DNA from: Escherichia coli
GTDB taxonomy: Bacteria > Pseudomonadota > Gammaproteobacteria > Enterobacterales > Enterobacteriaceae
Assembly (NCBI RefSeq): GCF_044324785.1
Contig: NZ_CP172127.1
Length of the DNA stretch: 64,000 nt
Reading direction: 5' to 3' (one strand)
Shown here: piece after piece, positions 42,950 to 46,308 of the stretch
How positions within the stretch are numbered: the stretch's first letter is position 1
Layout of the letters: each line of letters begins with the position of its first letter
The notes under the pieces: generated by a model
What the model was told of the DNA's origin: nothing
What the model saw: the letters and a program-made list of their open reading frames with translations, nothing else
Databases searched by the model: none
Made by a program: the position numbers and the translations under genes

Positions 42950-43639
42950 TTACGAGGCGATCGCTGCAATAAAGCGTGTCGTTATCTGCTGCGGACGAGT
43001 GATTGCCCCCCCAACCACCACGGTATGAGCGCCTAATGTCAGGCAACGTGCGGCGCACTCCGGGGTGTCGACATTCCCTTCCGCCACGACCGGAACGCTG
43101 ACCGCTTTCAGGACCTCACGTAAGAATCCACAGTCATTTTCCGCCAGCACATGCCTGGCAGTTTCTGCGGTATAGCCGTAGAGCGTAGTGCCCACACAGT
43201 CAAAACCCAGACGTTCAGCTGTCACTGCCTCTTCTACTGTTGCTATATCTGCCATCAGAAGTATGGACGGGTAGCGAGCGCGGATCTGCGTGACCAGTTC
43301 TTCCAGCGTCTGACCACCAGGGCGCGGGCGCGCAGTAGCATCCAGGGCAATAATTTCCGGCTCAACGGTCATCAGCTCATCCACTTCCCGGAGAGTGGCC
43401 GTGATAAACACCTCACTGCCAGGGTAATCGCGTTTGATAATCCCTATCATCGGAAGGGAGACAATCTCTTTGATAGCACTAATATCCGCCACGCTGTTGG
43501 CACGGATACCTGCAGCACCACCTTGTGCTGCCGCCAGCGCCATACGTGACATAATAAACGGACTATGTAGAGGCTCATTTTCCAGAGCCTGACAGGAGAC
43601 GATTAATTTACCTTTCAGGGAATCCAGTACAGTTTTCAT
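42950..43639 (-). CDS. nanE: N-acetylmannosamine-6-phosphate 2-epimerase
   Basis: 229-aa ORF with NanE-family TIM-barrel signature along its length. Confidence 0.85.
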
Positions 43640-45195
43640 TACGATAAAATCTCTTCGACTTCGTTTTTAATGATGGTGACATGAGGGCCATAAATCACCT
43701 GAACGCCGTTGCCGCGAATAATCACGCCACGCGCTCCGGCCACTTTCAGCGCAGCTTCATCTACCTTACTGCTCTCTTTAACCGTCACGCGCAGGCGCGT
43801 GGCGCAACAGTCCACCTCTTCCAGATTCTCTTTGCCTCCCAGCCCGGCAATGACTGCCGCTGCGCGTTCACTCTGAGGCTGGCCGGATTCAACCTGGGTT
43901 ACGTTCTCACGCCCCGGCGTCAGCCAGCCAAAGCGGTTAATCAAATAGCGGAAAGTAAAGTAGTAAAGGAAGAACCACGGTATTCCCACTATGGGGACAT
44001 ACATCCAGTTTGTTTTAGCTTCCCCCTGCAACACGCCGAAGAGAAGGAAATCGATAAGCCCGCCCGAAAAGGTTTGCCCAATAGTGATATGTAAAATATG
44101 GGCGACCATAAACGCCAGACCATCGAAGAAGGCGTGAATTACGTATAATACGGGCGCGACAAACAGGAAGGAGAACTCAACAGGCTCAGTGATTCCCGTC
44201 AGGAAAGAGGTCAGGGCTGCCGACAAAAGTAGTCCGGCGACAACCTTTCTATTCTCCGGCTTTGCAGTATGGTACATTGCCAGACATGCGCCAAGCAGGC
44301 CAAACATCATGGTGATAAAGCGCCCGGACATAAAGCGAGCGGTACCCGCGTAGAACTGCTGCGTATTCGGATCGGCAAGTTGGGCAAAGAAAATCCGCTG
44401 CGTACCTTCAACCAACTGGCCGTTGACGATTTCACTGCCGCCCAGCGCCGTCGTCCAGAACGGCAAATAAAAGATATGGTGTAAACCCAGTGGACCGAGC
44501 ATACGCAGGATGAAGCCGTACAACAGCGTCCCCAGATAGCCCGTCGCATCCACCAGGTCGCCCAGTCCAAAAATGAGTTTCTGGAAATGCGGCCACACCA
44601 CCGTCATAACCGCACCCACTACTATCGCGGCAAGGGAGCTGATAATGGGTACAAAACGAGAACCACTAAAAAAACCGAGAAACTGAGGTAGTGAGACTTT
44701 ATTGAAACGGCTATGTAAAGTGCAGGTGACGAGACCAATCACCACCCCACCAAACACACCAGTTTCCAGTGTCTGAATACCAAGCGTCATCCCCTGGCCA
44801 ACTGAAGCGGGGTTCTTGTGCGCCAGCGTTCCGTTGAGCGTTAATAAGGCGTTGATGGTGGCATTCATCACCAGAAACGCCAGCAATGACGCAAGCCCGG
44901 CAGTGCCTTTATCCGATTTCGCCAGCCCCACGGCGACGCCGACTGCAAAGAGTACCGACAGGTTGGCAAACACAATAGAACCTGCGCTGGTCATGATTGT
45001 GAATATTGCCTGCAACCAGTCGGCATCTAAAAACGGATAAGCCGTCAACGTGTTTGGATTTGACAACGCGCCACCAATCCCTAATAACAGCCCTGCTGCG
45101 GGCAATACCGCAATCGGCAGCATGAAGGATTTTCCGAACCGCTGCGCTTTTTCAAACCATCCCCCCGATGAAGCGCCGCTAAACATTTGCATCAT
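43639..45195 (-). CDS. PTS EIICB component (glucose/GlcNAc family)
   Basis: 518-aa membrane permease with C-terminal EIIB CATRLR motif. Confidence 0.85.
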
Positions 45196-45360
45196 TTTAT
45201 CATCTCCTCGATTTTTGATGAAAATTTTTACTATAATTATTCTTATAAATAAAAATCACCATCAAAATCTAAGAAGTCGATCATACTTTTTTAAAATGTC
45301 TGGCATCAATCCCCTCCTTTCCGTCACACTATCAACAGATAAACGCATTAAGGATTTTAC

Positions 45361-46185
45361 ATGTCAGAAAATGAAAACCTGCTGCTGAGATTGCGCCAGA
45401 GCGTTGATGGATATAGCCGAACACAACAGAAGCTGGGAGAGTTTGTACTTAGCGATCCGGCAAAAGTTGTCTACCTGACGATTACCGAACTTGCGCGTGA
45501 AAGCGGCACCAGCGAGGCTAGCGTCACACGTCTGTGCCGAACGCTTGGGTGTAAGGGCTATAACGAATTCAAAATGGCGCTGGCACTCGATCTCCGACAA
45601 GTACAGTTTGTAGAGCACGGCGGTGATGAGATTGACAATGTGGTCAATGAATCCGTGCAAGCAATACAGGACACAGCAAAATTACTCGACAGAGCCTTGC
45701 TGGAAGCAGCCGCGCTTGCACTGCATCAGGCTCAGTCAGTGCAGATTTATGGCGTAGCAGCCAGTGCCATTCTGGGGGAGTATTTACATTATAAACTCCT
45801 GCGTCTGGGGAAACCCGCACAATTGTTCAGCGATATGCATCGTGCTGCCATGAACGCCACAACACTTAGTAAAAACACGTTCGTGGTGGCGATTTCCAGT
45901 TCTGGATCCACGCGCGATCTGCTGCATGTCGTAAAACTAGCGCGTAAGCAAGGTGTGCGTGTACTGGCGCTGAGTAATACACCGCGCAGTCCGTTAGCTT
46001 CGCTGAGTGATATTCAACTGGTCGCGGCCAAACCGGAAGGACCCTTGAGTGCCGGCGCGCTGACTGCCAAAGTGGGAGTGATGCTGTTGGTAGAGCTACT
46101 CACCACATCGCTGATTGCGCTGGATGACCAGTACAGCGAGGTGAGCCAGAAAACAGCCAGCGCGACCCTACCGCTACTGCTTTAA
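45361..46185 (+). CDS. RpiR/MurR-family transcriptional regulator (HTH plus SIS domain)
   Basis: N-terminal HTH ITELARESGTSEASVTRLCRTLG and SIS sugar-phosphate-binding region; divergent from the PTS-nanE operon. Confidence 0.85.
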   Translation: MSENENLLLRLRQSVDGYSRTQQKLGEFVLSDPAKVVYLTITELARESGTSEASVTRLCRTLGCKGYNEFKMALALDLRQVQFVEHGGDEIDNVVNESVQAIQDTAKLLDRALLEAAALALHQAQSVQIYGVAASAILGEYLHYKLLRLGKPAQLFSDMHRAAMNATTLSKNTFVVAISSSGSTRDLLHVVKLARKQGVRVLALSNTPRSPLASLSDIQLVAAKPEGPLSAGALTAKVGVMLLVELLTTSLIALDDQYSEVSQKTASATLPLLL

Positions 46186-46276
46186 AGACATAAAAAACCG
46201 CCGAAGCGCTGGGTGCTCCCCATGAATCAGTGATAATAAACCAACATCATATTCTGGTAGGTTCTGGCGAGGTGAT

Positions 46277-46308
46277 TAAAAACGGTGCTCAGCACCGTTC
46301 GTTTTTAA
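46277..46308. terminator. Bidirectional rho-independent terminator between convergent genes
   Basis: Perfect palindrome AACGGTGCTCAGCACCGTT flanked by A-tract and T-tract. Confidence 0.6.

Follow-up and report, generated by a model that had tools for sequence, protein, structure and literature searches.

The 64,000-nt stretch of Escherichia coli DNA analysed here (the window) is an ExPEC/APEC pathogenicity island that carries a nanE gene and a PTS permease gene divergent from an RpiR family regulator. The locus raises three questions: which sugar it serves, where it came from, and whether a palindrome beyond the regulator gene ends transcription there. All ORFs were present at the coordinates given below, and an identical E. 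coli chromosome in RefSeq is annotated in the same way.

42107-42445, minus strand: PliC/MliC family gene (NF010363, 155.7; cutoff 127)
42950-43639, minus strand: nanE, ManNAc-6-P 2-epimerase (NF002231, PF04131)
43639-45195, minus strand: PTS EIICB, glucose family, without an EIIA domain (PF02378 and PF00367)
45361-46185, plus strand: NanR-type RpiR/SIS regulator (rpiR), divergent from EIICB-nanE (HTH_6 and SIS)
46342-47685, minus strand: phytase-like gene (PF13449)

Genes of the locus

A preliminary description had proposed a nanE-EIICB operon divergent from an RpiR/SIS regulator, and both the gene identities and the layout were borne out by profile matches and ORF coordinates. The EIICB stop codon and the nanE start codon overlap in TAATG, and nanE is translationally coupled to EIICB. 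The genes nanE, EIICB and rpiR are all real and under purifying selection, with dN/dS values of 0.035-0.2 across the three (nanE, 0.06-0.15; EIICB, 0.035-0.09; rpiR, 0.04-0.2). The same description placed an MliC-like secreted protein just upstream. The family assignment held, whereas its product is better described as a periplasmic PliC-type protein encoded downstream of nanE on the same strand. We considered PliC and the phytase-like gene as parts of the system and rejected both, neither being found in any of 80 loci from other species. The phytase-like gene also occurs in E. coli without the three-gene module, and the module without the phytase-like gene. PliC and the phytase-like gene are unrelated neighbours.

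The nanE product scored 316.1 bits against NF002231 (cutoff 189) and 233.8 bits against PF04131 (cutoff 27). In the PDB it matches S. aureus NanE best (E 1e-78; Salmonella NanE, 8e-38), and the island protein belongs to the Gram-positive-like lineage. With the S. aureus active site as reference (Gln11, Arg40, Lys63, Asp124, Glu180 and Arg208), the active-site residues Q17, R46, K69, D131, Y156, E187 and R215 are all kept, as are both signature motifs, LPMIGIIKR (xPxIGIxK[basic]) and VGGAITR (VG[SG]AxTR). By profile and by active site the protein is a NanE, and epimerase activity is predicted.

The regulator has an N-terminal HTH_6 domain (PF01418, 67.6 bits) and a C-terminal SIS domain (PF01380, 69.4 bits), which place it in the RpiR/MurR family. 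It matched V. vulnificus NanR (4IVN), whose structure is a complex with ManNAc-6-P, at 234 bits (E 1.5e-68); the next RpiR protein in the PDB reached 115 bits, MurR only 66-67 bits and S. pneumoniae NanR (SpNanR) 54 bits. Both proteins share the phosphate-loop SSSGST and the TRLCR arginines used in DNA binding. We class the regulator as a putative NanR-type RpiR, V. vulnificus NanR being its closest solved relative by a wide margin and its gene being linked to nanE. Their 44% identity is not proof of the same effector, and ManNAc-6-P is accordingly named here as the predicted one.

The permease has EIIC (PF02378, 298 bits) and EIIB (PF00367, 56 bits) domains, a GITE motif at 334 and a CATRLR motif with the phospho-Cys at 464. 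It scored 293.1 against TIGR00852 (pts-Glc; cutoff 291.1) and 364 bits against the E. coli PtsG structure 8QSR. Its domains together with the GITE and C[AI]TRLR motifs assign it to the PTS glucose-glucoside family (TC 4.A.1).

Transported sugar and control of the operon

Uptake of an amino sugar, as suggested in the preliminary description, gained support from the NanR-type regulator and from gene order. In 77 of 80 related loci from two phyla, nanE comes directly after EIICB; among them are Bacillales loci with a different RpiR protein (27-35% identity). The same architecture with a divergent NanR-type rpiR was found in 50 of 56 sampled Enterobacterales loci. No other catabolic gene is conserved beside the module among the related loci. 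A sialic acid (nan) cluster was rejected, as nanA, nanK and nanT are absent from the module and from its conserved neighbours. The EIICB-nanE pairing thus points to ManNAc itself rather than sialic acid, and EIICB is most likely a ManNAc permease. The literature searched yielded no experimental work on this EIICB, on a close homologue or on the E. coli module, and no characterised ManNAc-specific glucose-family PTS.

An alternative is that EIICB transports glucose, glucosamine or GlcNAc, or is broadly specific like pneumococcal SP1684, in which case its linkage to nanE would not define the substrate and NanE would be fed by another source of ManNAc-6-P such as ManXYZ uptake or sialic acid breakdown. 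The top-scoring model is indeed the glucose-specific TIGR02002, and the PtsG match given above is of the same tenor; the TIGR02002 score, 587.3, nevertheless falls just under its equivalog cutoff of 591.8. Scores against PtsG (NF008301, 421; cutoff 647), MalX (482; cutoffs 632-665) and NagE (445; cutoff 553) were also below cutoff, and on these scores EIICB does not qualify as specific for glucose, maltose or GlcNAc; the MurP model gave only 36 bits. SP1684, a nanE-adjacent, EIIA-less glucose-family PTS and the one that has been studied, showed only a mild glucosamine growth phenotype, pneumococcal ManNAc uptake was mapped to ABC transporters, and NanP is inducible by GlcNAc. However, pneumococcal nanE is needed regardless, for the co-encoded nanA/nanK pathway, whereas the cassette consists of EIICB and NanE only and the pair persists in both phyla with neither nanA nor nanK. 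NanE would receive no substrate from a permease for glucose, GlcN or GlcNAc, and the regulator resembles NanR, not NagC or Mlc. We regard a glucose or broad-specificity permease as unlikely.

With ManNAc as the predicted substrate, EIICB would import the sugar and phosphorylate it to ManNAc-6-P; since the protein is without an EIIA domain, the phosphoryl group would come from the housekeeping EIIA-Glc (Crr). NanE would then convert ManNAc-6-P to GlcNAc-6-P, feeding the core NagA/NagB pathway. It has been reported for E. coli that PTS-made ManNAc-6-P is the NanE substrate (PMC10667646). The divergent regulator would repress the EIICB-nanE promoter at two conserved boxes, both AT-rich, that cover the -35 and -10 elements and would be released on binding of ManNAc-6-P to its SIS domain, with CRP as a probable added catabolite control. 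The boxes were located in an alignment of 56 intergenic regions, in which the genera agree in the intergenic length (~165 bp) and in the 31-bp distance between the boxes but differ in the sequence around them.

45214-45236, minus strand: box 2, TTATAGTAAAAATTTTCATCAAA, predicted NanR operator, overlapping the likely -10 of the EIICB promoter
45246-45267, minus strand: box 1, TTTTGATGGTGATTTTTATTTA, second operator or CRP-like site, 31 bp upstream of box 2 and overlapping the likely -35
45269-45288, minus strand: degenerate CRP-like site TATGA-N6-TCTTA, well formed at the aligned position in Pantoea and Erwinia (AGTGAAAGCTATCACA)

Box 2 takes the form of a dyad, TGTGGTAA-N6-TTACCACA, in Pantoea-type loci. 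Box 1 reads GGTGATAATTTTCAC(A/T) in other species, with 1-3 mismatches to TGTGA-N6-TCACA, and would suit CRP as well as a second operator. A promoter-like match lies at 45265-45236. For rpiR, a sigma-70 promoter built from the conserved TAGTGTGGCGGAAAG and TGGCA blocks was rejected for want of convincing -35/-10 spacing, and the intergenic regions gave no sign of structured RNA, nothing in Rfam matching 41700-48000 at E <= 1. Three substitutions in the window allele fall at promoter-box positions that are otherwise conserved; they include TATGGT to TATAGT (an improved -10), and the allele reads TATAGT, GATTTTTA.

These substitutions bear on the possibility that the cassette is redundant cargo, functionally silent or decaying, in a species that already has manXYZ and nanE. 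IS debris and pseudogenes abound in the island, the cassette is missing from 91% of complete E. coli genomes, and rpiR is truncated in some genomes. Against this, all three reading frames are intact, and dN/dS is 0.09-0.2 even when the two E. coli alleles are compared; at least three alleles were gained or kept separately (~100%, ~96% and 93%, the last on conjugative plasmids); and the change to TATAGT betters the -10, contrary to what decay predicts. Redundant cargo is thus very unlikely. We concluded, with a probability of roughly 65%, that the locus is a self-contained, horizontally acquired cassette for the use of free ManNAc.

Origin of the cassette and the convergent hairpin

The three-gene module is present in 468 of 5426 complete E. 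coli genomes; the strains listed with it come mostly from human or poultry sources. Its neighbours in other species are eno, pyrG, mazG, queE, cysJ and cysI, and in donor-type genera it lies between eno and queE. Comparison with such loci accounts for both edges of the cassette.

42864-42879, minus strand: fossil first 16 nt of donor queE (ATGCAGTTCCCGATTA), left junction of the module (homology to donor loci)
42894-42921, unstranded: 28-bp perfect palindrome GGAATAAGCGATAATTATCGCTTATTCC, 29 nt past the nanE stop
46192-46208, unstranded: remnant (A-tract and left arm) of the donor bidirectional eno/rpiR terminator, right junction (donor comparison)
46276-46309, unstranded: terminator-like hairpin with the palindrome at 46281-46299, putative bidirectional terminator for rpiR (plus) and the phytase-like gene (minus)

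On the left, the cassette is homologous to the loci of Citrobacter, Enterobacter and Lelliottia from nanE to the end of ATGCAGTACCCGATTA, the queE start (MQYPINEMF...), and the homology stops at 42864. The 28-bp palindrome, a 12-bp hairpin with no U-tract, derives from the donor nanE-queE spacer, which has a conserved extended -10-like motif (TGCGATAAT); the version in the donor genera is imperfect (GGGGATCTGCGATAATTATCGTTTATCCCC). On the right, donors have AAAAAAACCCGCCGAAGCGGGTTTTTT between rpiR and eno, and the window retains AAAAAACCGCCGAAGCG and then diverges. These junctions show that the cassette came out of the eno-queE locus on a Citrobacter-like chromosome. No tRNA was found within the window as an island insertion site. 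The tkt1 island of APEC O1 was rejected as the same locus, being sited at metE-ysgA and carrying different genes.

Capture severed rpiR from its native terminator, whose place the hairpin at 46281-46299 would now take; it is the first terminator-like structure downstream of either convergent gene. A perfect palindrome with flanking A- and T-tracts had been described at this position, and it proved exact: 19 nt (AACGGTGCTCAGCACCGTT), arranged 9+1+9, with 0 expected by chance in shuffles. In the hairpin, a stem of 8-9 bp, of which 5 are GC pairs, closes a 3-nt loop. It is flanked by TTAAAAA upstream and CGTTTTT downstream and folds at -11.3 kcal/mol on the plus strand (z = -2.7) and -12.5 kcal/mol on the minus strand (z = -3.7). 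It stands between convergent stop codons, 96 nt past the rpiR stop and 43 nt past that of the phytase-like gene. A GC-rich stem-loop with an A-tract and a T-tract between convergent genes is the layout of a bidirectional intrinsic terminator, and that function is plausible here. The palindrome is a single copy in the window and was rejected as a repeated element; in other E. coli DNA it is confined to this spacer. It stays with the phytase-like gene where rpiR is gone, and it stays with rpiR, with one stem mismatch, in O104:H4. By this distribution it came with the DNA of the phytase-like gene and is not native to the module.

The palindrome might instead be the scar of a junction, or a site of protein binding or recombination within an IS-rich spacer, with the rpiR and phytase-like transcripts ending elsewhere or overlapping. 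The hairpin is of modest stability, its U-tract is interrupted on the plus strand (UUCGUUUUU), and the O104:H4 allele has the stem mismatch just mentioned. Moreover, the region holds no excess of terminator-like sites overall (5 vs 6.6 expected in shuffles), and IS1 has inserted into the 156-bp spacer to one side of the hairpin or the other, depending on the lineage. Yet 46281-46299 is the best-formed of the sites found, and five uninterrupted U follow the stem on the minus strand. The chance expectation, the folding scores, the flanking tracts and the exact placement between the stop codons also favour termination, as does its being the sole canonical candidate left for rpiR once the donor terminator was lost. 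We therefore hold a role other than termination to be improbable.

Relation to known systems and significance

The divergent design of the cassette is that of E. coli murR/murQ-murP, the MurNAc system, in which an RpiR/SIS repressor is divergent from an operon of an EIIA-less glucose-family EIIBC and a sugar-6-phosphate enzyme; two adjacent operators lie over the -35 and -10, and the system is Crr-dependent. The sugar differs, and the murQ-murP enzyme is an etherase whereas that of the cassette is an epimerase. V. vulnificus NanR shares the HTH_6 and SIS layout and the identity over its full length, and its gene also adjoins nanE. Vibrio control by NanR, CRP and ManNAc-6-P likewise has a counterpart in the two adjacent conserved sites and the CRP-like site of the divergent promoter. 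The Vibrio regulon, in contrast, catabolises sialic acid with a TRAP transporter, nanA, nanK and nagA; the cassette is a PTS permease and nanE only, and therefore its input would be ManNAc and not Neu5Ac.

Nan operon-I of S. pneumoniae (nanE-nanP, SP1685-SP1684) also has nanE beside an EIIA-less glucose-family EIIBC, under the control of a ManNAc-6-P-binding RpiR protein, NanR. These genes, unlike those of the cassette, sit inside a full sialic acid cluster, and SpNanR is an activator and only a distant relative of the cassette regulator. The L. monocytogenes lmo2795-nanE operon combines an RpiR regulator, a PTS and NanE; there, NanE was required for growth on ManNAc, and deletion of the operon's PTS did not abolish growth. 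It differs from the cassette in having separate EIIA and EIIBC proteins, an activator as regulator, and extra ROK, HAD and oxidoreductase genes.

The core ManNAc route of E. coli, ManXYZ and the NanE of nanATEK-yhcH, uses the same two steps, from PTS transport to ManNAc-6-P and by NanE to GlcNAc-6-P (PMC10667646). The core transporter, however, is of the mannose family and that of the cassette of the glucose family; the core regulator is a GntR-type NanR and that of the cassette of RpiR type; and the cassette has a Gram-positive-like NanE and is without nanA, nanT and nanK. As a combination of regulator, transporter and epimerase, the cassette is an ordinary sugar cassette that would not surprise a specialist.

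A farther-reaching proposal, which we offer tentatively and consider doubtful, is that EIICB would be the first characterised representative of a ManNAc-specific branch within the glucose-family PTS, one that Firmicutes and Enterobacterales share at 69-75% identity and that was joined in Enterobacterales to a Vibrio-type NanR as a minimal ManNAc-inducible pathway independent of sialic acid catabolism. ExPEC/APEC would have acquired it at least three separate times, and the promoter/operator substitutions of the O1/APEC allele would raise expression and give a fitness advantage in the host niche.

The fossil junctions are an unusually clean record of the origin of island cargo genes. If the ManNAc reading is true, a substrate would be assigned to a widespread EIICB subfamily now annotated as 'maltose/glucose-specific', and ~9% of complete E. 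coli genomes would have a dedicated, self-regulated ManNAc route. The ManXYZ/NanE route of K-12 is poorly induced, and the cassette route would bypass it. ManNAc is freed wherever sialic acids are degraded, and the cassette could therefore bring a slight nutritional fitness benefit on mucosal surfaces.

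Gene content and predicted substrate of the module

All open reading frames named in the preliminary description were present, and profile searches bore out the family of each; its observations were confirmed and its interpretation was supported with refinements. The genes are as follows:

42107-42445, minus strand: c-type lysozyme inhibitor (NF010363, 155.7 bits against a cutoff of 127)
42950-43639, minus strand: NanE, nanE (NF002231, 316 bits against a cutoff of 189; PF04131)
43639-45195, minus strand: glucose-family PTS EIICB without an EIIA domain (PF02378, PF00367; TIGR00852, 293.1 against a cutoff of 291.1)
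45361-46185, plus strand: RpiR regulator (HTH_6 and SIS domains)
46342-47685, minus strand: "phytase-like esterase" protein (PF13449)

The nanE start and the EIICB stop overlap in TAATG, and the two genes therefore form one operon, as had been proposed. The lysozyme inhibitor had been described as MliC-like: the inhibitor family and a signal peptide stand, but direct reading of the sequence found no lipobox cysteine, which places it with the periplasmic PliC type and not with the lipoprotein MliC type. Its gene (pliC) has a G+C content of 0.40, much below the 0.51 of the module (nanE, EIICB and the divergent rpiR), and the genomes in which it accompanies the module number only about 143-147; it is thus separate cargo. 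The phytase-like protein is secreted, 447 aa long and matched no NCBIfam model; its gene travels independently of the module, along with an IS110 pseudogene and a ugpB-like gene.

In PDB searches NanE was nearest to the Gram-positive type enzymes of S. aureus (1Y0E/6VVA, E 1e-78) and C. perfringens (4UTT), and much more distant from the Salmonella and Vibrio enzymes (E 1e-37 to 1e-30). Checked position by position, it keeps both signature motifs and all residues important in S. aureus NanE, namely Gln11, Arg40, Lys63, Asp124, Glu180, Arg208, Tyr149 and the phosphate-binding glycines (PMC8482478). The EIICB carries both the GITE motif and the phospho-cysteine of CATRLR, and its alignment with E. 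coli PtsG covers the full length; it scored under all substrate-specific equivalog cutoffs, including the glucose-specific TIGR02002 (587.3 vs 591.8). The best solved relative of the regulator is PDB 4IVN (E 1.5e-68, 234 bits; 44% identity over 272 residues), the Vibrio vulnificus NanR (VvNanR) crystallized with ManNAc-6-P, and the next RpiR protein reached 115 bits. The recognition-helix arginines of the regulator (TRLCR) correspond to those reported critical for DNA binding.

We consider it fairly probable (roughly 0.65) that the cassette serves ManNAc uptake and epimerization under a ManNAc-6-P-induced NanR-type repressor, ManNAc being the predicted substrate. External ManNAc would enter through EIICB as ManNAc-6-P, with Crr as the phosphoryl donor, NanE would convert it to GlcNAc-6-P for the core NagA/NagB pathway, and the repressor would sense ManNAc-6-P as inducer. 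To our knowledge, ManNAc-6-P and GlcNAc-6-P are the sole substrates of NanE-type enzymes. The cassette consists of only a PTS permease and an epimerase, and in two phyla these stay paired, nanA, nanK and nanT being absent from their vicinity; this makes the ManNAc route the simplest reading. In the ManXYZ/NanE route of E. coli, ManNAc-6-P likewise comes from a PTS and passes to NanE, a chemistry equal to the one proposed here (PMC10667646), and the design of the cassette matches that of the murR/murQP divergon. Doubt comes from two Gram-positive cases that count against ManNAc: pneumococcal SP1684, the only studied nanE-adjacent EIIA-less Glc-family PTS, has a glucosamine phenotype, ManNAc uptake in that species being mapped to ABC transporters (PMC3302838), and Listeria can grow on ManNAc without the PTS of its operon.

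Conserved boxes in the rpiR-EIICB spacer

A cross-species scan, with each species represented by one genome, gave 80 loci. nanE lies directly 3' of the EIICB gene in 77 of them, and 50/56 Enterobacterales loci have a near homologue of the regulator (59-95% identity) upstream in divergent orientation; PliC and the phytase-like protein were found in 0/80. The rpiR-EIICB spacer measures 165-168 bp in 37 of the 56 loci and holds two AT-rich boxes, 31 bp apart, conserved amid diverging sequence. Alignment of the spacers gave:

45267-45246: box 1, consensus TGATGATAATTTTCA
45236-45214: box 2, consensus TGTGGTAAAAATTTTCATCA

Box 2 forms a clean dyad in Pantoea-type loci (TGTGGTAA-N6-TTACCACA). By promoter scan and sequence reading, the boxes overlap plausible -35 and -10 elements of the EIICB promoter. 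We interpret them as predicted NanR operators, in line with the pairs of adjacent sites reported for VvNanR and MurR. With 1-3 mismatches, box 1 also matches the CRP consensus. Upstream lies another CRP-like site, degenerate in the window but well formed in Pantoea/Erwinia. In the window (O1/APEC) allele three conserved box positions (45214-45267) are changed compared with all 55 other species. The changes read GATAATTTTCA to GTGATTTTTA and TATGGT to TATAGT, the latter being the better predicted -10 element. These substitutions may cause derepression or higher expression in the O1/APEC lineage.

Origin of the module between eno and queE

Neighbour clustering found the same housekeeping genes beside the module in Citrobacter, Enterobacter, Lelliottia, Raoultella, Rahnella, Hafnia and others. 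From representative sequences we take these to be enolase, CTP synthase and MazG on one side and QueE, CysJ and CysI on the other, which places the module between eno and queE in these genera (donor-type loci). On sequence comparison, the E. coli copy preserves both ends of this context. At the left, donor homology runs past the nanE stop and through a palindromic spacer into the opening 16 nt of queE (ATGCAGTACCCGATTA) and ends at 42864; an IS3-family remnant lies beyond (about 42729-42842). At the right, the donors have a canonical bidirectional terminator, AAAAAAACCCGCCGAAGCGGGTTTTTT, between convergent rpiR and eno, of which the window retains only AAAAAACCGCCGAAGCG (46192-46208) before diverging. 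The two fossil ends thus delimit a captured segment of about 42864-46208, or 3.3 kb.

The transposase remnant at 42729-42842, which abuts the left junction, is 82-89% identical to annotated IS3/DDE genes and absent from the RefSeq annotation. At the right junction about 30 nt (46209-46238, GCGCTGGGTGCTCCCCATGAATCAGTGATA) stand in place of the right arm of the donor terminator. One Citrobacter locus (L009, about 1500-1530), likewise outside the eno-queE context, shares this segment, which there folds into a 9-bp hairpin (AGTGCTGAG...CTCAGCACT); it may be the end of a mobilizing element. The spacer 3' of nanE contains a 28-bp perfect palindrome (42894-42921, GGAATAAGCGATAATTATCGCTTATTCC). Donor genera have an imperfect form of this spacer (GGGGATCTGCGATAATTATCGTTTATCCCC), with a conserved TGCGATAAT motif upstream of queE; the changes that perfect it are present in both E. 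coli alleles. The palindrome at 42894-42921 lacks a U-tract; it may be a hairpin at the 3' end of nanE, a promoter left over from the donor or a site for protein binding.

Identity to the closest Citrobacter proteins in the sample is 91-96%, with dS of about 0.5-0.6, so that the true donor is a relative of these species and none of them. All three genes are under purifying selection (dN/dS 0.035-0.2). Bacillales and Selenomonadales share EIICB at 69-75% and NanE at 48-64% identity and RpiR at only 26-35%. We concluded that the Enterobacterales module joins a transporter-enzyme pair shared with Firmicutes to a gamma-proteobacterial NanR-type regulator. In the Firmicutes loci (L058-L084, match 5001-6575) EIICB always adjoins nanE, and its unusually high identity across phyla suggests a fairly recent inter-phylum transfer of the pair.

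Distribution in E. coli and the palindrome 3' of rpiR

The chromosome of E. coli O1:H42 strain CLSC36, in which RefSeq annotates these five genes, matches the region at 100% identity, as do several isolates from poultry and humans. The surroundings of the region are a pathogenicity-island mosaic with ireA, a second PTS accompanied by transketolase genes, a YadA-like adhesin, an autotransporter and an integrase, and are also rich in IS elements and pseudogenes. After the YadA-like trimeric autotransporter adhesin (39983-41750 region; RefSeq places its start earlier, at 39758 by coordinate conversion) comes a 151-aa protein whose only domain is a sigma-70 region-4 HTH; this protein may be a dedicated adhesin regulator.

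The module (42950-46308) occurs at coverage of at least 80% in 468/5426 complete E. coli genomes. Its main allele groups are two, with 208 records at 99% identity or more and 314 records, O104:H4 included, at 95-99% (mostly about 96%). A third allele (93.4% identity) is carried by conjugative plasmids of about 135-142 kb in hen E. coli (NZ_OY754422.1 etc., 51131-54418); it has other boundaries, equivalent to 42903-46189 of the window, which shows that it was captured independently. In O104:H4, IS1 follows the post-rpiR spacer, and the phytase-like gene and pliC are both missing. In AR Bank #0349 the rpiR side is replaced by IS1, with 46240-46308 and the phytase-like gene retained, and in EC17CM12 rpiR is reduced to its last 66 codons beside the phytase-like gene. 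Within the 156 bp that separate rpiR from the phytase-like gene (46186-46341), IS1 has inserted on either side of the palindrome at 46281-46299 in different lineages (about 46338 in O104:H4, about 46240 in AR Bank #0349).

This palindrome, AACGGTGCTCAGCACCGTT, is perfect, as the preliminary description had it, with 0 expected by chance; it lies 96 nt past the rpiR stop and 43 nt past the phytase-like stop. The plus strand folds into an 8-bp stem with a 3-nt loop (-11.3 kcal/mol, z = -2.7) followed by CGUUUUU, and the minus strand into a 9-bp stem (-12.5 kcal/mol, z = -3.7) with a U-run directly after. A putative bidirectional terminator is a reasonable interpretation; the region shows no enrichment of terminator-like motifs as a class. 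Sequence comparison found the palindrome missing from donor-type loci. It is kept with the phytase-like gene where rpiR is gone (AR Bank #0349), and O104:H4, a lineage that has lost the phytase-like gene, still carries it with a single mismatch in the stem. In our reading it is primarily the putative terminator of the phytase-like gene. After capture, with its own terminator cut in half, rpiR would have the palindrome as the first terminator-like structure 3' of it.

The three-gene module is an ordinary accessory sugar-utilization cassette of known families, already in RefSeq under generic annotation. Its modest interest lies in the clean fossil junctions, which identify its source as the eno-queE locus of a Citrobacter-like genome, its mixed ancestry, its repeated acquisition by E. 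coli and the allele-specific promoter changes.
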